From a virus (Duplodnaviria; Heunggongvirae; Uroviricota; Caudoviricetes): a stretch of DNA of 8,475 nt. The DNA lies in the IMG/VR virus record IMGVR_UViG_2648501235_000008, one strand, 5' to 3'. This document shows positions 1 to 8,475 of the stretch, piece after piece. The position numbers and the translations under genes are program-made. Below the pieces are notes generated by a model. It searched no databases. It saw only the letters and a program-made list of their open reading frames with translations, and was not told the DNA's origin. Each line of letters begins with the position of its first letter. Position 1 is the stretch's first letter.

Positions 1-112
1 AGTCGCTGTCGTTCTCAAAATCGGTGGAGCTGCATGACAAAGTCATCGGGCATTATCTGAACATAAAACACTATCAATAAGTTGGAGTCATTACCCAAAA
101 CTTAAAAATGGA

Positions 113-1444
113 ATGCAGAAATACATTGATATTTCTCTTTGTTTGAATTTGGCTTTGTTAGATTTAAATGTCATTTTAGGTGATAAAGAGCCACAAAATA
201 GAGCTTTGGAAGGTTTGAAATCTTTAATTAAACAGTCCGATGGAATGTCTGTTCTAATTGAAAGATTTAGAAGCAGTAATTTGATTCGTCATAATCTAGT
301 GTCTTGGCCTTTAGCTAACTATACTAAATATAAAGGAGATCTTACTGAGGAGAATTTATACAGTAAGATGCATGGTATTCCACTTGATAATGATAAATTA
401 AATAAAACCCCTAGATATATTCATGCTGATGAAAAGCAGCTTTTCGATTTGATTGATGCTCTTCATACAAGAAAACTACATAAGTTTACGCATGAAAATA
501 AGCATCACTTAAAAAATTGCTCTGTTACTAAGATAAAAGATAATAAAGCTCTTGAAATAAAGGTAGGAATTGATGATAGAAGTGGTAATGACACAATAAA
601 AGTTGCGTTGGCAAATATGAGAGTTGAACGTCGTAATATTGAAAGTGCTTGCAGAAAAGATCAGTCTCCAAATTTAAGTTATGAACGACAAAGAAACCTT
701 TATCGTATTCTCAACTCGGCAACTGAAGAAAATGTGCAGATATTACTACTCCCTGAGTTATCAATTCCTGTGTCGTGGTTACCTTTTATGGCAGCACATT
801 CAAGGAGAAAACAAATATCTTTGATTTTCGGATTAGAGCATTGGGTTATTAACGAACGCGCATATAATATTTTGGTTGAAATGCTGCCTTATACTTCAAA
901 CTTTAAACACAAATCCAGTATGTTAGTTTTTCGAGTGAAAAATCATTACGCACCTAGTGAGATTACGATGCTGAATTCTTTAAGGTTAAAAATATCCTCT
1001 CCTAAACCTAGTAAACAACGGTATCATTTGATTAAGTGGAAAAACGTATCATTTTCTACATACAACTGTTTTGAACTGGCTAATATCGAGCATAGAGCAT
1101 TATTTCGTTCGCAGTTGGATATTTTATTTGCTTGCGTATGGAATCAAGATATAAATTATTATCAACATATCACTGAGTCAGCGACACGGGATTTACATTG
1201 TTATGTGGCTCAATCAAATACTTCGCATTATGGCGGTTCTTGTGTTCTACAACCGACCAGTAGCACTATTTCAAATAAGATATATGTAAAAGGTGGGGAA
1301 AACCATTGCATCCTAACTACTACTTTAAATATATATGCATTGAGAGAGGCTCAATATCGTTCATTCAGAATTAACTCCGATACTATTAAACACAATCCTC
1401 CAGGGTTTGACTATAATGCTCTATTAGAGCGAGGTGAGAAATGA
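113..1444 (+). CDS. Hypothetical 443-aa protein: unassigned N-terminal region (about aa 1-190) plus C-terminal carbon-nitrogen hydrolase (nitrilase-superfamily)-like domain; candidate defense effector
   Basis: Long ORF in the only AT-rich stretch of the window. Manual motif reading: hydrophobic strand then LLLPE (E215, nt 755-757); ISLIFG strand; FRVKNHYAPSE (K276 nt 938-940, E283 nt 959-961); FSTYNCFE (C319 nt 1067-1069); DILFACVWN; YVAQSN...GGSCVLQP. Order and spacing fit the nitrilase-superfamily E-K-E-C tetrad. No convincing SD before ATG 113, so the start is uncertain. Stop overlaps the next start (ATGA at 1441-1444). Confidence 0.7.
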   Translation: MQKYIDISLCLNLALLDLNVILGDKEPQNRALEGLKSLIKQSDGMSVLIERFRSSNLIRHNLVSWPLANYTKYKGDLTEENLYSKMHGIPLDNDKLNKTPRYIHADEKQLFDLIDALHTRKLHKFTHENKHHLKNCSVTKIKDNKALEIKVGIDDRSGNDTIKVALANMRVERRNIESACRKDQSPNLSYERQRNLYRILNSATEENVQILLLPELSIPVSWLPFMAAHSRRKQISLIFGLEHWVINERAYNILVEMLPYTSNFKHKSSMLVFRVKNHYAPSEITMLNSLRLKISSPKPSKQRYHLIKWKNVSFSTYNCFELANIEHRALFRSQLDILFACVWNQDINYYQHITESATRDLHCYVAQSNTSHYGGSCVLQPTSSTISNKIYVKGGENHCILTTTLNIYALREAQYRSFRINSDTIKHNPPGFDYNALLERGEK

Positions 1445-2130
1445 GTAGCTTTTGGGAAGGTATTTTGTCATCAAGCATTTCATTTGCAATTATTGGATTT
1501 GTTTGTAAGGCTTTTTTACAACATATTGATAAAAGAGAGTTAGAATCATTTAAAAATAAGTTGAAATATGAAAGTGAACAGAGAATTAAAGAGGATGAAC
1601 GTGCTTATAATTTTAAAAAAGCAAGAGATCTTGAAATCGGACGTTGGGGGTTAACATTACTTAGTGCTGCAAATGGTTTTTTAGGAAGGCTATGTTATAT
1701 TAAAGATCACAATGACCTATCGTCGGATCAATATTATATTGATAGTACAAGATTCTATCTATGCCAATATTTTTGCTGGGTACATCAATTCAGGAAAAAT
1801 AGAGATTCATCTGTATTTTCACCAACTAATGATGAAATGTTAATAACTGAATTAATCAAAAATATTTCTATAGCCCTACGAGAGAACGATATTGGTTTTC
1901 CTTGTATTAGATCTCTTGAACAAAAGTATATAGGTGAAAGCCTTAGCATTGGTGCTGAATGTATGTCCTATAAAGATTTTATCGATTCTAAAGTATTAGA
2001 AAACTATGCACCTCTAAATGATTTTGTTGAAGCAATTCTACAAAATAATAATAAAGATTATATCGATAAACTCGTTATCCCATTCCAAGATCTCAAGACC
2101 AGATTTGATGCGGCATTACAAAATAAATGA
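1441..2130 (+). CDS. Hypothetical 229-aa protein with N-terminal hydrophobic membrane-anchor-like segment; operon partner of the upstream gene
   Basis: ATG at 1441 overlaps the upstream TGA (ATGA). Good SD GAGG at 1431-1434, 6 nt before the ATG. Residues about 6-27 (WEGILSSSISFAIIGFVCKAFL) are hydrophobic, followed by a charged, probably helical region. Same AT-rich composition as the upstream gene. No recognisable catalytic motif. Confidence 0.65.
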   Translation: MSSFWEGILSSSISFAIIGFVCKAFLQHIDKRELESFKNKLKYESEQRIKEDERAYNFKKARDLEIGRWGLTLLSAANGFLGRLCYIKDHNDLSSDQYYIDSTRFYLCQYFCWVHQFRKNRDSSVFSPTNDEMLITELIKNISIALRENDIGFPCIRSLEQKYIGESLSIGAECMSYKDFIDSKVLENYAPLNDFVEAILQNNNKDYIDKLVIPFQDLKTRFDAALQNK

Positions 2131-2148
2131 TTTTTTTACCTGCGCGCA

Positions 2149-2167
2149 ATGCTCTCCCCGCCTCGCC
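2149..2167. other. cos cohesive-end core of P2/P4 type
   Basis: Minus strand of 2149-2167 reads GGCGAGGCGGGGAGAGCAT, 17 of 19 identical to the P2/P4 cohesive end GGCGAGGCGGGGAAAGCAC as I recall it. It sits just beyond the psu stop, where P4 carries cos. Confidence 0.55.
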
Positions 2168-2190
2168 CGCCCGCTTTGCGGGGCGGTTTT
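2165..2190 (+). terminator. GC-rich bulged hairpin followed by TTTT, terminator-like, overlapping the cos region
   Basis: gcccgcccgc-ttt-gcggggcgg then tttt (2187-2190), 35 nt after the ORF2 stop. The stem has one bulge. It may instead be part of the cos recognition region. Confidence 0.3.
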
Positions 2191-2212
2191 AATGCAGTTG
2201 CACTGACACGCT

Positions 2213-2240
2213 CAGACCGCGCCGGGAATGGCGCGGTCTG
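2213..2240. repeat. Perfect 11-bp inverted repeat with 6-nt loop
   Basis: cagaccgcgcc (2213-2223), loop gggaat, ggcgcggtctg (2230-2240). No flanking T-tract on either strand. Possibly a cos-flanking terminase recognition element or an RNA stability hairpin. Confidence 0.5.
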
Positions 2241-2270
2241 CAGAAAATGAGGCAGGGAAACGCATGCAAA

Positions 2271-2301
2271 GCCATGCACCTTATCGATGCATGGCTTTTT
2301 T
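2271..2301 (+). terminator. Rho-independent terminator between the convergent cargo operon and psu
   Basis: Stem gccatgca (2271-2278), 9-nt loop, tgcatggc (2288-2295), then TTTTTT (2296-2301). An A-run upstream (2268-2270) gives partial bidirectional character. Confidence 0.5.
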
Positions 2302-2331
2302 CAGTAAAAACAGGCGGATTTTCGGGGAATT

Positions 2332-2904
2332 TTACACAGACTGACGTGATGCCAGTTGCGCACTTTTACGCGAAAAAATCATGTTCTGCGCAGGGGTGAA
2401 TTTTTCACGGCTGTCATCCACCGAAGCCGCGTCAGGCCTGAATCCGATGGTCGTTAAAATGTCGCTATCCTGTGCGGAATAATTAATTTTTTCACCCTTC
2501 GCAAGCCAGGACAGGAGGGCTTCACGCAGGGCATCTGTGGCACGCTGTATGGCACAGTTTCGGGCAATGGCCGTCAGCTCACTGTAGCCCATCAGCTCCG
2601 GTGCCAGTGCCGCCGCCAGTGCTGTGCCGTGCTGCTGCATAAAATCATTCAGCCGGTCGCGGATGCTGATGTGCTGAACGGCTTCATGCGAACGAATATA
2701 ACGACCGGCAGCCTGATTCACCTGCCATTTTCTGACTTCGATAATATTGCGTAATTCGTCCAGGCGACTGACGTTTCTTCCTTCCCCTGACAGAAGCCGC
2801 AGATATTCCTGTTCGGCCGCAGCCAGCTCATTTTTGCGTTGCAGCCATGCTGCTTTGTTATTCTGACAGGTGTCAAAGGCCTGCTGTAAGGCTGTGCTTT
2901 CCAT
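2332..2904 (-). CDS. psu: Psu, polarity suppression / capsid decoration protein of P4-like satellite
   Basis: 190-aa ORF, the length of P4 Psu. N-terminus MESTALQQAFDTCQNNKAAWLQRKNELAAAEQEYL matches Psu as I recall it. Last gene of a sid-delta-psu arrangement. Confidence 0.9.
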   Translation of the reverse strand: MESTALQQAFDTCQNNKAAWLQRKNELAAAEQEYLRLLSGEGRNVSRLDELRNIIEVRKWQVNQAAGRYIRSHEAVQHISIRDRLNDFMQQHGTALAAALAPELMGYSELTAIARNCAIQRATDALREALLSWLAKGEKINYSAQDSDILTTIGFRPDAASVDDSREKFTPAQNMIFSRKSAQLASRQSV

Positions 2905-2977
2905 CGTTATCTCTTTCTCATCATGCTGAAGAATAAAAATACGGTGTGCGGCGACGGCCGGTGTTAACCGGCAGCCC

Positions 2978-3478
2978 TCATTCCAGACGCAGCGAATATG
3001 ATTGTGTTTTTAAGCGTACTGGCGGCAGTTCCTGTTTTTCATGCAGGCTTTCTGCCAGTTCGTCCGGCGTGACCGGGCGGACAATAAAACGGTTGATGGT
3101 CTGAAGCGTTTTAAACACCAGACCACATCCCGGATCCGTGCACACATAAAAACGCTCGGTGACTTCCTGAGACAGACGCCGCGATGTTCTTGACAGTGCA
3201 AGGCCTTTACATCTCCGACAACAATATCCGGTAACAAGCATTCTTTTCGGGCGTTTCATACTGCCGGAGGCTGACGTCAGTGAATCGCGGTATCTCTGTT
3301 TGCCTGAAATGTATTCCATTCCTGAATCTTTACTGTCAGAGAAAAAGCTTTCACTCGCTTCAAATGTCGCAGAGCAATAAATATTCCGGCACTGTGCAAT
3401 CATTATCTTGGTGCCATCGTCCATGAAATGTGCGCGGCGGGTGTGAGCAACATGTCCACACGACGGGCAGTAAATCAT
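2978..3478 (-). CDS. delta: Delta, late-gene transcriptional activator with tandem Ogr-type zinc-finger repeats
   Basis: 166 aa with two Cys-rich Ogr-like repeats (CPSCG...C...YC and CCRRC...C...GC). Start overlaps the sid stop (ATGA at 3475-3478). Confidence 0.9.
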   Translation of the reverse strand: MIYCPSCGHVAHTRRAHFMDDGTKIMIAQCRNIYCSATFEASESFFSDSKDSGMEYISGKQRYRDSLTSASGSMKRPKRMLVTGYCCRRCKGLALSRTSRRLSQEVTERFYVCTDPGCGLVFKTLQTINRFIVRPVTPDELAESLHEKQELPPVRLKTQSYSLRLE

Positions 3479-4209
3479 GACAGCAGTCCTCTGGCCTTAA
3501 GCACTGCTCCCTGCTGGTCTATTTTGTCCTGCCACACCTTGCGCTGTGCCGGTGTGCCTGCCACCTCATAATCCATGTGAGGAAGTGTTGCCGCTGACAG
3601 TCCGGTCAGCCGGAGAACCGGCTCGCCGGTGAGGCTGATTTGCATCTGTTTAATTTTCTGTTCCAGCGATGATTTCACCTGCTGCATGACAGCCTTTTCC
3701 GGTGCGACGTAGCCCTGATGGCCGGTGGTGTTGGCGAGCGGATTTTCCTGTACCAGAATGCTCAGATGCATTGCCCGGACAAGCGCCTCACAGGTTTCAT
3801 TCAGGGCGTGTTCCAGCTCATGCTCTGCATACAGACTCAGAAGGTGATGATGTGCCTTCCGGTAGGCGGTGGCCGTGCTGTCACACGCCCCTTTCAGGCG
3901 TTCACGTTCGAAATTCAGCACCACGGCCAGATTGTCATATTCCTGTACCAGCTCCCGGCGTGCCACGCGCTCAATGTGGCGCTGTTTCAGCTCGTCGCTC
4001 AGGACACCACCGGCTGCACGAAAGGCCGTGCGCCAGTCGTCAGCGTCGTTTCCGTCGGCCTGCGCCAGCGCATTTTTTTCCTGCTCTGCCCGTTCAATGG
4101 CCGTGACGGTCTCATCCATCAGTCGGGCGTTCTCAAGGTGGGCGGCTCTGGCCTTTTCCAGTTGTGCCAGTGCGGGTTGCAGATATTCAGGGATGGTGTT
4201 GTCAGACAT
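3475..4209 (-). CDS. sid: Sid, external capsid size-determination scaffold protein
   Basis: The track ORF runs to 4275, but the internal ATG at 4207-4209 has a strong SD (GAGGAG, complement of 4217-4222, 7-nt spacing) and gives 244 aa beginning MSDNTIPEYLQPALAQL. Helical, Q/E/A/L-rich. Position upstream of delta fits P4. Confidence 0.85.
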   Translation of the reverse strand: MSDNTIPEYLQPALAQLEKARAAHLENARLMDETVTAIERAEQEKNALAQADGNDADDWRTAFRAAGGVLSDELKQRHIERVARRELVQEYDNLAVVLNFERERLKGACDSTATAYRKAHHHLLSLYAEHELEHALNETCEALVRAMHLSILVQENPLANTTGHQGYVAPEKAVMQQVKSSLEQKIKQMQISLTGEPVLRLTGLSAATLPHMDYEVAGTPAQRKVWQDKIDQQGAVLKARGLLS

Positions 4210-4243
4210 TTTCCGGCTCCTCGTCACTTCAGGTTGAGAAAAT

Positions 4244-4299
4244 TGTGACGTACACCGGACAACAACACGACGCATTGCAGATGTGCCAGCCCTGACACA
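4244..4299. promoter_or_regulatory. Divergent late-promoter region with two TGT-N12-ACA dyads (Ogr/Delta-type activator sites)
   Basis: TGT-gacgtacaccgg-ACA at 4244-4261 (right half extends to ACAACAACA) and TGTG-ccagccctga-CACA at 4282-4299. They lie 35-90 bp upstream of the sid start on the minus strand. Confidence 0.45.
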
Positions 4300-4379
4300 G
4301 GAGACTCATCCTCACACCGGCAAGCCAGGAAAAGGTCGCTGGAAAAAACGGCTTACTGTTTATTTTTTTTATATTTTAC

Positions 4380-4483
4380 TGTTCACCTCTGTTCACCATA
4401 AGAAAAAAGATAAGTAATACAGTAAGTTAAAGGGTGAACAATCGCAGTAATGACTGTTCACCGTCTGTTCACCACTGTTCACC
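4380..4483. repeat. TGTTCACC octamer iteron cluster, P4 ori-type (alpha-protein binding sites)
   Basis: Direct TGTTCACC at 4380-4387, 4390-4397, 4455-4462, 4466-4473 and 4476-4483; inverted copy GGTGAACA at 4433-4440. An AT-rich tract (about 4355-4378) is adjacent. The octamer matches the P4 ori/crr type I iteron as I recall it. Confidence 0.6.
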
Positions 4484-4587
4484 CGTTGATGGGCTTTTTG
4501 TGCTGTTTATTACTGTTTGTTTTTATTAATTCGCCGGGAATGAATAAGAAAAAACGATTTGTATTTCACTATAAAAATTACGAATTG

Positions 4588-4617
4588 CTTTAAGTGGCTT
4601 TAAATGACTTTAAGTGG
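4588..4617 (+). repeat. Three tandem 10-bp repeats upstream of vis
   Basis: CTTTAAGTGG (4588-4597), CTTTAAATGA (4598-4607), CTTTAAGTGG (4608-4617). Candidate regulator binding array; function not determinable from sequence. Confidence 0.5.
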
Positions 4618-4762
4618 AGATGAACAAAAAATACACAAGCATTGTAAGGCTGCCGGAACAAATCCCCCCTGTTGCGTCTGCTGAAAATATTCACAAAATA
4701 AAGCGCTACCCGAAGCCGGACGGACTTATCCGGTGCTGTATGGACATTAACGAGGTAGCCCG

Positions 4763-5029
4763 ATGCAAGCTGTTTTTTCTTCCCCGTCTCCCGCCCCTGT
4801 GACGCCACTGATGCCGCTGCCGGACATCACACAGGAGCGTTTTTTACGTCTTCCGGAAGTGATGCACCTGTGCGGCCTGTCACGCTCGACCATCTATGAA
4901 CTCATCCGTAAGGGGGAATTTCCGCCGCAGGTGAGTCTTGGCGGTAAAAATGTGGCCTGGCTGCACTCTGAAGTCACCGCATGGATGGCCGGGCGCATTG
5001 CCGGACGCAAACGGGGGTACGACGCATGA
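4763..5029 (+). CDS. vis: Vis / AlpA-family helix-turn-helix DNA-binding regulator
   Basis: 88 aa, the length of P4 Vis (orf88). Core [30 protein letters not shown] is a typical AlpA-family HTH. SD GAGG at 4751-4754, 7 nt before the ATG. Confidence 0.85.
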
Positions 5030-5625
5030 TGATGCCCGCTCTGCAAAAACTCCCTTTTTCTGGCTTGCCTTTTTCCGGCATTTGCGGATATAGTTTTTCC
5101 GCTGTCGCAAAATCGGCAGCCGGGCGTGGAAACCCGAGCAATCTAACGGCGACATATGACGCGCCATGCGTCTTTTTTTGTGTCGCAATCAACGCCACAG
5201 AGCGCCAGATTATGGTGTGGTGTGTGGTCAGTCGAGCAGATGGCACTCCGTGCATCCTGCCCGCGTCCGCTCATTATGCCGCAGAGTCAATGGTAGCTCA
5301 GGCGGGGCAGCCTCCGGGCTGGCCGGTATCCGTTAGAGCCGGTATTTCCACCCCCGTCTGGGCTATCGCCATCGAGCGTGGAAACTCCGGCGATAGCGTA
5401 ACCTGCTATCTAACGGAGGCTGCCATCATGGCTACAACCCTTACCCCTTCACACCCTGAATTTGTCTTTGTGTTTGCGGCTGTCCGTCGCGCAGACCGTC
5501 ATCCCCGTATCTGCATGCTTCGCACCGTCGCCGGTGATGAACGCAGTGCCCGCCGTTCCCTTGTCCGTGACTATGTGCTCTCCCTTGCTGCCCGTCTGCC
5601 GGTGGTGGAGGTGTCCCGTGCGTAA
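5026..5625 (+). CDS. 199-codon ORF spanning the immunity region (P4 orf199-like); translation uncertain
   Basis: ATGATGATG at 5026-5034 overlaps the vis stop (ATGA). The length equals P4 orf199 from memory. Composition is weakly protein-like and the frame covers the seqA/B/C-like RNA elements, so it may not be translated as a whole. Confidence 0.3.
5065..5094 (+). promoter_or_regulatory. Candidate sigma70 promoter, PLE-like
   Basis: TTGCCT (5065-5070), 18-nt spacer, TATAGT (5089-5094). Lies just downstream of vis and upstream of the seqA-like element. Confidence 0.3.
5124..5416 (+). ncRNA. Immunity-type region with seqA / seqB / seqC-like elements; candidate cI-type regulatory RNA locus
   Basis: Direct copies of GCGTGGAAAC (5124-5133, 5376-5385) and ATCTAACGG (5141-5149, 5408-5416). 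Between them, 5330-5353 (ccgttagagccggtatttccaccc) is the inverted complement of both blocks (CCGTTAGA / TTTCCAC). A 9-bp hairpin (5362-5370 / 5389-5397) encloses the second GCGTGGAAAC. Precise RNA ends cannot be set from sequence. Confidence 0.4.
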
Positions 5626-5905
5626 TAAAAAAGCCCCTCAGACCGTCTCAGCGCGTCATGACGCCCGTGAACACCTCAGCATTGAGGCTTACCATAAGCT
5701 CAACCGCGCCAGCGCCGTATCCCAGTTTGTTGGGGGTGATTTGATTCACCGTGAACTCTCCGGCCTGCATCAGCTCTACATTCCGCATATTTTCAGCTAC
5801 CTGAATGAAGATATTGATTTTGTGCTGAATGAGCTGAAAGCCAAAGGCCTGTGCCGCGATTTTCTCGCCCAGCAGAAAGACCGGGGAGACAGGACGCATG
5901 TTTGA
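5618..5905 (+). CDS. 95-aa protein in the position of P4 epsilon (derepression protein); identity not established
   Basis: GTG start at 5618 with SD GGAGG (5607-5611, 6-nt spacing). The 52 codons upstream in the track ORF (from 5462) are not protein-like and overlap the preceding ORF. The 3' end overlaps the next start. Confidence 0.45.
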
Positions 5906-6353
5906 TTTTCCCCAGCCCGGTGAGATTTACCGTTCTGCCGGTTTTCCCGATGTGGCCGTGGTCGGCATTCTGGAAGACGGTATTCCGTGGGAAATGCCGT
6001 ACCGCTGTCCGGACATTGTCTGGAACCCGTACCGCCGAAAATTCAGTATCCTTGTGCGTATCCTCACTGACGGGCGCACCACAGACATCCCGCTGGGGCG
6101 TTTTCTGCGGGAATTTACCTGTGACCGTCCTGACCTGTTCAAACGCAGCCCCGTAAACCGGCATGCGGTACTGAAAGAAATGGCCGGAGACCCGGAATTA
6201 CAGAAATGGCGGGAGAAATATCTGGATATTTACCCGCAGGACACTGTTCCGGCCAGCCGGGCGGCACCGGTGGCGCGGGAATGGCGGGAAATTCCCCGCA
6301 CGGAGCCTGACCCGGAAATCACCCCGGATAACAGTTACCGCAATTATCTGTAA
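5898..6353 (+). CDS. 151-aa protein, P4 orf151-like
   Basis: Length equals P4 orf151 from memory. Protein-like composition, same strand and operon as alpha. Start overlaps the upstream stop. Confidence 0.6.
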   Translation: MFDFPQPGEIYRSAGFPDVAVVGILEDGIPWEMPYRCPDIVWNPYRRKFSILVRILTDGRTTDIPLGRFLREFTCDRPDLFKRSPVNRHAVLKEMAGDPELQKWREKYLDIYPQDTVPASRAAPVAREWREIPRTEPDPEITPDNSYRNYL

Positions 6354-6488
6354 TTAAAAAACGACACCCGAAAAATTAAATGTGCGTATTCGCGCAGGGA
6401 TACGCACGTCTTCAGGAGACGCAGATATGCCTTATCAGTTAATGCAACCGGCACGGAATGCAGTCATCTGTCACAGGGAGGAAAACAA

Positions 6489-6809
6489 ATGAAAACACCC
6501 TTACCGCCCGTCTTACGCGCTGCCCTTTACCGTCGCGCTGTCGCCTGTGCCTGGCTGACCGTGTGCGAACGTCAGCACCGCTACCCGCATCTCACCCTTG
6601 AATCACTGGAGGCGGCCATCGCCGCTGAGCTGGAGGGCTTTTATCTGCGCCAGCACGGTGAGGAAAAAGGGCGTCAGATAGCCTGTGCCCTGCTGGAAGA
6701 TTTAATGGAATCCGGCCCCCTGAAGGCCGCGCCGTCGCTGTCCTTTCTCGGGCTGGTTGTGATGGATGAACTCTGTGCCCGTCACATAAAAGCGCCGGTA
6801 CTGCACTGA
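6489..6809 (+). CDS. 106-aa hypothetical protein immediately upstream of alpha
   Basis: Strong SD GGGAGG (6475-6480, 7-nt spacing). Stop lies 14 nt before the alpha start. Confidence 0.55.
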
Positions 6810-6823
6810 AGGAGAACAACACC

Positions 6824-8379
6824 ATGAAAATGAACGTAACCGCCACCGTCAGCCATGCGCTCGGCCACTGGCCGCGTATTCTCCCGGCGCTGGGGATTCA
6901 GGTGCTGAAGAACCGTCATCAGCCCTGTCCGGTCTGTGGCGGGAGTGACCGTTTCCGTTTTGATGACAGGGAGGGGCGCGGCACCTGGTACTGCAATCAG
7001 TGTGGTGCCGGTGACGGCCTGAAACTGGTTGAAAAGGTGTTTGGTGTTTCCCCGTCCGATGCGGCCGCAAAGGTGGCTGCCGTGACCGGCAGCCTGCCCC
7101 CTGCTGACCCGGCAGTGACGGCTGCCGCCGGTGCTGAAACAGACGCTGCCCGGAAGAACGCCGCCGCACTGGCACAAACCCTGATGGCGAAAACCCGTCC
7201 CGGAACCGGTAACGCCTACCTGACCCGCAAGGGCTTTCCCGGCCGGGAATGCCGGATGCTGACCGGCACACACAGAGCCGGTGGCGTGAGCTGGCGTGCC
7301 GGTGACCTTGTGGTGCCACTGTATGACGACAGCGGCGAACTGGTTAACCTTCAGTTAATCAGTGCTGACGGCCGTAAGCGCACCCTGAAAGGCGGACAGG
7401 TCAGGGGCACCTGTCACACCCTTGAAGGACAGAATCAGGCCGGAAAACGTCTGTGGATAGCGGAGGGATACGCGACCGCACTTACCGTGCATCACCTGAC
7501 CGGTGAAACGGTGATGGTGGCGCTTTCTTCCGTGAATCTCCTTTCTCTGGCCAGCCTTGCCCGGCAGAAGCATCCGGCCTGTCAGATTGTCCTTGCTGCT
7601 GACCGTGACCTCAGCGGTGACGGCCAGAAAAAAGCCGCCGCAGCCGCAGGTGCGTGTGAAGGTGTTGTTGCCCTGCCGCCGGTCTTCGGTGACTGGAATG
7701 ATGCCTTCACGCAGTACGGCGGGGAAGCCACCCGTAAGGCCATTTATGATGCCATCCGGCCACCGGCTGAAAGCCCGTTCGACACCATGAGCGAAGCGGA
7801 GTTTTCCGCCATGAGTACCAGCGAAAAGGCCATGCGTATCTATGAGCATTACGGCGAGGCGCTCGCGGTCGATGCCAACGGCCAGCTTCTGTCCCGCTAT
7901 GAAAATGGTGTCTGGAAGGTGCTGCCGCCACAGGACTTTGCCCGGGATGTGGCCGGGCTGTTTCAGCGGCTGCGCGCGCCGTTCTCCTCCGGGAAGGTGG
8001 CCTCCGTGGTGGACACCCTGAAGCTGATTATTCCGCAGCAGGAAGCCCCCTCCCGCCGCCTGATTGGCTTTCGTAACGGCGTGCTCGACACGCAGAACGG
8101 CACGTTCCACCCGCACAGTCCGTCACACTGGATGCGCACCCTGTGCGATGTGGATTTCACCCCGCCGGTGGACGGTGAAACGCTGGAGACCCACGCCCCC
8201 GCGTTCTGGCGCTGGCTTGACCGTGCCGCCGGTGGCCGTGCGGAAAAACGCGACGTGATTCTGGCCGCACTGTTTATGGTGCTGGCAAACCGCTACGACT
8301 GGCAGCTCTTTCTGGAGGTGACCGGTCCCGGCGGCAGCGGCAAAAGTATCATGGCCGAAATCGCCACCCTGCTGGCCGG
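6824..8379 (+). CDS. alpha: Alpha primase-helicase (zinc-ribbon, TOPRIM primase, D5-like helicase with Walker A); 3' part absent or interrupted
   Basis: SD GGAG at 6811-6814. N-terminal zinc motif CPVCGGSDRF...WYCNQCG; TOPRIM-like LWIAEGYATALTV and VLAADRD; Walker A GPGGSGKS at 8327-8346. The frame stays open to 8475, but the expected helicase-like character is lost after 8379. Not in the ORF track because no stop occurs in the window. Confidence 0.85.
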
Positions 8380-8475
8380 CTGTCTCTTATACACAAATCC
8401 CCACCCGGGGATTTGTGATGTCTGTCAGTCTGCTTTAGGGGGACTCTTTCCATCCGGTAGTTTCCTTCCTCCCCG
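8380..8475. mobile_element. Putative terminus of an IS4-family (IS50-like) insertion sequence
   Basis: CTGTCTCTTATACACA at 8380-8395 is identical to the first 16 nt of the Tn5 mosaic end and 15 of 16 to the IS50 outside end, from memory. It is followed by a perfect palindrome cacaaatcccc-acc-ggggatttgtg. The junction coincides with the loss of alpha coding character. Confidence 0.35.

Follow-up and report, generated by a model that had tools for sequence, protein, structure and literature searches.

The 8,475-nt stretch analysed here (the window; IMG/VR record IMGVR_UViG_2648501235_000008, Caudoviricetes) carries genes of a P4-like satellite, and its last gene, the P4-type primase-helicase gene alpha, stops resembling a helicase gene shortly before the window itself ends. 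The locus raises the question of what the final 96 nt are. An earlier note, made from the letters alone, had read them as an IS50/Tn5-type end that inactivates the replication protein and leaves behind a domesticated satellite with its defence cargo, and had offered a library adapter as the alternative source of the first 16 nt. We therefore asked which sequence follows alpha, how it came to be joined to it and what the join means for the satellite. The coordinates of the features discussed are collected in Table 1.

Table 1. Features of the 8,475-nt window, in the order of their positions.
Feature	Position	Strand	Evidence or remark
IS1 terminal 95 nt (insB 3′ end and right inverted repeat, ending ...GGAGTCATTACC)	1..95	+	100 % to L007:8158-8252
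drt1a 3′ half (DRT type 1 reverse transcriptase-nitrilase), codons about 510-958	96..1444	+	PADLOC RT_UG5-nitrilase
drt1b (DRT type 1 membrane partner), intact	1441..2130	+	PADLOC RTasTM 1-229/229, E 5e-164
Late genes psu (2332-2904), delta (2978-3478) and sid (3475-4275, longest ORF)	2332..4275	-	All open
P4-type alpha (primase-helicase), 5′ two-thirds	6824..8379	+	518 codons + 2 nt of 777; Pfam, identity to L016:8927-11260
Walker A codons (GPGGSGKS, alpha residues 501-508)	8324..8347	+	
Predicted left copy of 8-bp target-site duplication, CTGGCCGG	8372..8379	+	Predicted from young ISEc13 copies
ISEc13 nt 1-96 (IS4 family, IS50 group)	8380..8475	+ (same orientation as alpha)	96/96 identity
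19-bp terminal transposase-binding end, CTGTCTCTTATACACAAAT	8380..8398	+	17/19 to Tn5 outside end, 17/19 to mosaic end
TTATACACA within the 19-bp end	8387-8395	+	
Inverted repeat, hairpin-forming, 11-nt arms, 4-nt loop	8392..8417	+	Arms 100 % complementary
Hairpin arms	CACAAATCCCC at 8392-8402; GGGGATTTGTG at 8407-8417		

Identity of the sequence that interrupts alpha

The P4-like core genes psu, delta, sid, alpA, ash/epsilon and alpha are all present in the window in their conserved order, with Pfam hits to Psu, Ogr_Delta, Phage_ASH, DUF5375 and the primase-helicase domains; psu and delta were assigned by the Psu and Ogr_Delta models, and sid by its position and its annotation in relatives. 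Positions 95-8379 are identical to two loci that each carry an intact 777-aa alpha (L016 and L018: 100.000 % identity, 8285 nt, zero mismatches). The window is likewise collinear with, and 100 % identical to, satellites that carry int, the int gene itself lying outside the window.

Identity to intact alpha is 100 % up to position 8379 and then stops. An alignment with P4 itself and with intact relatives places the end of P4-type alpha homology at exactly this base, and a megablast search with window positions 7300-8475 against 5,426 complete E. coli genomes returned best hits covering query positions 1-1080 of 1176, which also stop at 8379. The sequence across the break is ...ATCGCCACCCTGCTGGCCGG/CTGTCTCTTATACACAAATCCCCACCCGGGGATTTGTG... 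(the slash marks the break); intact alpha continues after it with GGAGGATAACGCC, whereas the window has CTGTCTCTTATAC. The break falls after 518 full codons and 2 nt of alpha, 32 nt past the Walker A codons, and the reading frame runs on as CLLYTNPHPGICDVCQSALGG... in place of the EDNATSATIETLESP... of intact alpha. Both the position at which the helicase-like character had been said to end and the loss of that character in the continuing frame are thus borne out.

The 96 nt beyond the break are identical at 96/96 positions to the left end of a canonical ISEc13 copy (L025:236-331) and to an E. coli O157 copy (L001:4001-4096), the latter being the left end of a degraded IS4/Tn5-family element, and the junction coincides with the first base of ISEc13. 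The same 96 nt have a match in 1375 of the 5426 complete E. coli genomes, and in more than 600 the match is at 100 %, so that the agreement lies well outside what chance could produce. A translated search of plasmids revealed intact copies that bear the PGAP name 'IS4-like element ISEc13 family transposase', and PGAP also annotates ISEc13 in E. coli E2348/69. Canonical ISEc13 (L025:236-1785) measures 1550 bp and encodes a 457-aa transposase, the ATG of which lies at IS nt 166 and so beyond the window, which stops at IS nt 96. In reference copies this transposase contains the Pfam domains Tnp_DNA_bind, DDE_Tnp_1 and Dimer_Tnp_Tn5, and its residues 8-450 match Tn5 transposase structures (4dm0, 1muh and others, E 1.5e-77). 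The tail of the window is therefore truly the left end of ISEc13, an E. coli IS that is related to Tn5 and already catalogued, with no difference in the part that is visible, and the proposal that an IS50/Tn5-type end interrupts alpha just after the Walker A motif was correct. Some lineages have active ISEc13, with 27-30 copies in enteropathogenic E. coli (EPEC) E2348/69 and 4-10 identical copies in several other strains. The name ISEc13 appears once in each of eight open-access papers, and in none of them in the title or abstract.

Comparison with IS50 of Tn5 indicates that ISEc13 is a natural sibling of that element. The two transposases are homologous over their whole length and share the same three Pfam domains. 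The right 19 bp of reference ISEc13 copies (CTGTCTCTTGATCAGATCT, at the terminus …AGATCTGATCAAGAGACAG) match the IS50 inside end at 19/19 positions, including the GATC sites and the stop codon inside the end; the sequence of the IS50 inside end was confirmed in a Tn5 remnant, where it immediately precedes aph(3′)-IIa. At the left end, ISEc13 agrees with the Tn5 outside end at 17/19 positions and keeps TTATACACA, which we take to be the DnaA-box sequence of that end (a putative role). They are nonetheless separate elements, IS50 having been compared from a remnant without its outside end. Features in which ISEc13 is unlike IS50 include a target made up of a C-run, N8 and a G-run, and an 11-bp hairpin inside the left end.

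Target site and origin of the junction

Young copies of ISEc13 (flanks examined at L025, L027, L029-L034 and L036) point to the kind of site that the element prefers. Nine of 10 are flanked by an 8-bp duplication, as against the 9-bp target duplication of Tn5, and in two of these nine an accidental match lengthens the 8 bp to 9 bp. The targets of the young copies are C-run/N8/G-run palindromes with ISEc13 at the centre, mostly terminator-like hairpins between convergent genes (agp/yccJ, ybaY/MGMT-family gene, symE/DUF1127 and yehA/rcnB), and recall the GGG-N5-CCC preference of IS231A. Several older copies (L001, L003, L026 and L035) have no target duplication. When a symmetrised weight matrix built from nine other ISEc13 insertion sites was run along an intact satellite, the alpha site (cgccaccctgCTGGCCGGggaggataac) scored 6.85 and ranked 9th of 9,430 positions, a score inside the leave-one-out range of real target sites (2.1-16.1). 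It is possible, though we would stop short of calling it probable, that ISEc13 is a target-selective relative of IS50 that makes 8-bp duplications at C-run/N8/G-run palindromes, and that the alpha site mimics such a target. A mimic of this kind just after the Walker A codons would explain why alpha was hit. If the preference holds and has not been described before, ISEc13 would provide a natural transposase of the Tn5 type with a strong and predictable choice of target.

The adapter alternative arises from a real resemblance. The 16-mer CTGTCTCTTATACACA matches exactly at 8380-8395 and occurs once in the window, against 0.04 occurrences expected even with three mismatches allowed, and the first 16 nt of the Nextera/Tn5 mosaic end (CTGTCTCTTATACACATCT) are identical to the ISEc13 left end. 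The resemblance ends there: positions 17-18 are TC in the mosaic end and AA in ISEc13. Whereas the mosaic end is an engineered hybrid of both IS50 ends, the ISEc13 left end is natural and has a T at position 4 by coincidence (Tn5 outside end and mosaic end sequences as given in PMC2566895). Only these 16 nt are shared with the 19-nt mosaic end, and the remaining 80 nt of the tail are ISEc13; nt 20-96 follow ISEc13 throughout and are not adapter sequence. The suggestion that the 16-mer comes from a library adapter is therefore rejected.

An artefact in the wider sense, either adapter read-through or an assembly or library chimera of alpha with an IS end, is extremely improbable. It would account for the 16 nt held in common with the 19-bp tagmentation end and for the absence of the junction from the other public sequences searched, and the window is evidently a short-read contig. 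Against it, positions 17-18 do not fit, and the 77 nt after the 19-bp end are ISEc13 sequence present in many complete genomes. De Bruijn assemblers usually work with a k of 21 or more, so that 16 bases common to adapter and IS are too few to bridge two sequences. A random chimera would be unlikely to join at the first base of the IS and also at a site within the top 0.1 % of targets; the two together are unexpected for a chimera and support a true transposition junction. The other end of the window, moreover, shows the same clean pattern with IS1. The resemblance has a practical side, since the Nextera-like sequence is a natural IS end: contamination screens may flag ISEc13 ends, which they should not, and at each copy of ISEc13, of which E2348/69, for example, has about 30, real reads will be cut back by adapter trimmers.

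Searches for a second instance of the join found none in the collections covered. The exact pattern of the left junction was absent from GTDB representative genomes, IMG/VR and JGI metagenomes, and no alpha/ISEc13 junction was found among the 5,426 complete E. coli genomes or in the plasmid and phage collections. The predicted right junction, with a duplication of 8-11 bp allowed, was absent from GTDB representatives and metagenomes. At the protein level, an exact look-up of the alpha-IS fusion gave no match in a collection that lacks the source assembly's own protein, and among 5.8 billion protein clusters searched with the fusion peptide there was no fusion of the IS end with alpha. Contigs encoding the window's own Drt1b and ORF151 proteins showed only loci with intact alpha or with unrelated decay. 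The junction thus rests on one assembly, and among ISEc13 insertions in the other records searched the alpha gene of a P4-like satellite did not occur as a site. In the same peptide search the IS end did turn up in read-through fusions with unrelated genes (TauD, an NAD(P)-binding protein, an ESPR protein and a phage tail protein), and several of these were partial proteins at contig ends. ISEc13 thus inserts at many different sites, and it is common for draft contigs to stop within it.

This window appears to be one such contig. Both of its ends stop 95-96 nt into multi-copy IS elements; at the other end, a search with positions 1-95 hits E. coli genomes at about 71,700 places, where the annotation reads IS1 family transposase. 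The window thus looks like a short-read contig broken at repeats, in which case the missing downstream sequence would reflect a limit of assembly and is not evidence of a deletion.

We consider it very likely that ISEc13 transposed into alpha of a P4-like satellite prophage of E. coli, most probably as a simple insertion with an 8-bp duplication. ISEc13, a cut-and-paste DDE element close to IS50, would have inserted between alpha codons 518 and 519, at a short C-rich/G-rich palindrome of the kind that it prefers, and would probably have duplicated CTGGCCGG in doing so. The junction could also be real without marking a simple insertion, if it arose by an IS-mediated adjacent deletion, an inversion or recombination between two ISEc13 copies; the 3′ part of alpha and the right end of the satellite would then have been removed or moved, with unrelated DNA beyond the IS. 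Such events have precedents: relatives of this satellite are often cut short by IS-associated deletions (L004-L007, L011 and L012), IS1 links a frameshifted drt1a with unrelated genes in L014, the older ISEc13 copies mentioned above lack a target duplication, and the source strain evidently has both IS1 and ISEc13 active. We nevertheless regard a rearrangement as unlikely, because secondary events would have had hardly any time to occur, given 8285 nt without a difference from intact satellites, the site is a good fit to what ISEc13 prefers as a primary target, as is expected of a first-hand insertion, and nine of the 10 identical young copies keep their duplication. The base-for-base identity to intact copies means that both IS events in this satellite are very recent.

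Replication and defence genes of the interrupted satellite

Intact alpha consists of a zinc ribbon (residues 30-66), a Toprim domain (210-299), D5_N (336-467), a helicase P-loop core (DUF5906, 500-608) and a C-terminal Pox_D5 domain (670-768), the last of which matches the structure of the P4 alpha C-terminal domain (PDB 1ka8, E 1e-63). The interrupted gene keeps the zinc ribbon, Toprim, D5_N and the Walker A motif (Pfam) and has lost residues 520-777, that is, everything of the helicase core downstream of Walker A, together with the C-terminal domain that binds the origin, so that no alpha with its primase, helicase and origin-binding parts together is present in the window. Continued with the canonical IS sequence, the frame would run for about 98 further residues to a stop at IS nt 298, predicting a 617-aa fusion in which the primase part and Walker A are joined to IS-derived residues.

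Alpha is described as indispensable for the replication of P4 DNA (PMC8628076, citing Ziegelin et al. 1993). Some P4-like satellite variants are reported to be without alpha (PMC8628076). With most of the helicase core and the origin-binding domain missing, the satellite should, on its domain content, be unable to replicate, which agrees with the earlier reading of an inactivated replication protein and a replication-defective element. It would fail to replicate after induction, yet could be carried passively in the chromosome.

A second IS event has struck the defence gene. In L016 and L018, drt1a is a full 958-aa gene, whereas in the window the IS1 terminus adjoins drt1a at about codon 510 of 958, and the ORF at 113-1444 covers only profile positions 516-958 of 958 of the DRT type 1 reverse transcriptase-nitrilase (PADLOC). 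Drt1b is complete and Drt1a is split by IS1; the window accordingly holds no DRT type 1 system with both proteins at full length. The earlier statement that the element retains its defence cargo fails on this point, as it is the catalytic gene that is split. A hit in strain E1739 that apparently had the same IS1/drt1a junction turned out to be a different rearrangement.

These observations bear on the idea that inactivation of alpha by an IS gave rise to a domesticated, immobile satellite kept by its host for a working defence cargo. Alpha is indeed knocked out, and drt1b, psu, delta and sid are open; in defective P4 and P2 elements, moreover, the primase is reported as the core gene most often pseudogenised, and such elements can keep their defence genes (PMC13586616). 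The cut in drt1a speaks against a working cargo, and the zero divergence from intact satellites elsewhere means that the events are too recent for selection to have acted, with no sign of long-term retention. We therefore think domestication very unlikely, and the term is not supported for the element, which looks instead like the onset of decay in an IS-active strain.

As in the defective P4-like satellites described previously (PMC8628076, PMC13586616), the replication gene is inactivated while the late genes are open. Here, in contrast, an identifiable and very recent IS insertion is the cause, and the defence system is disrupted along with the replication gene. P4 hotspots are reported to contain few defence pseudogenes (PMC13586616); the alpha knock-out thus fits the survey pattern, and the simultaneous knock-out of drt1a is the less common part. 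Knock-outs of prophage or satellite genes by an IS are routine events, and ISEc13 itself is a catalogued element, so the case matters little for biology at large. Its interest lies in what may be the first steps of satellite decay caught in the act in an IS-active E. coli strain, in agreement with the surveys of primase loss. With both its replication gene and its defence gene broken, the element should be counted neither as a working satellite nor as a working DRT1 system.

The exact satellite variant (100 %, 8285 nt) was found only in the two draft assemblies that contain L016 and L018 (GCA_016836405.1 and GCA_024926925.1), the nearest match among the 5,426 complete E. coli genomes being at 98.6 %. 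Other related loci show IS elements at other places. In L004-L007, L011 and L012 psu is the last satellite gene, adjacent to IS1 remnants, and host genes follow; L007 has IS1 inside drt1a at another site, and in L014 it is IS1 that joins the frameshifted drt1a to unrelated genes. Some sister satellites (among L004-L007, L011, L012, L017 and L021) carry an insertion of the IS21 family (ISEc12) in the ash region. Downstream of alpha, the intact relatives L015-L018 contain another integrase together with an island that includes TGT-like and DndB-like genes (locus 12014-16456), an arrangement of tandem integrative elements at the same site.

An inverted repeat inside the ISEc13 end

The earlier note had also described a perfect palindrome after the 16-mer. 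An inverted repeat with perfectly complementary arms is present; the arms are, however, split by a 4-nt spacer, and the repeat overlaps the last 4 nt of the 16-mer instead of lying downstream of it. As RNA it is predicted to fold with -31.2 kcal/mol (z = -2.9). A consensus scan recognised neither a canonical rho-independent terminator at the hairpin nor a sigma-70 promoter within IS nt 1-285. Diverged ISEc13 copies in Nissle and on a Salmonella plasmid (L003:3013-3036 and L027:234-260) retain the arms but differ in the loop. This conservation of the arms hints at a role at the RNA level, which might be, for example, the damping of read-through from outside the element. In the Salmonella plasmid copy one arm has changed from A to G, and pairing is still possible there as G-U.
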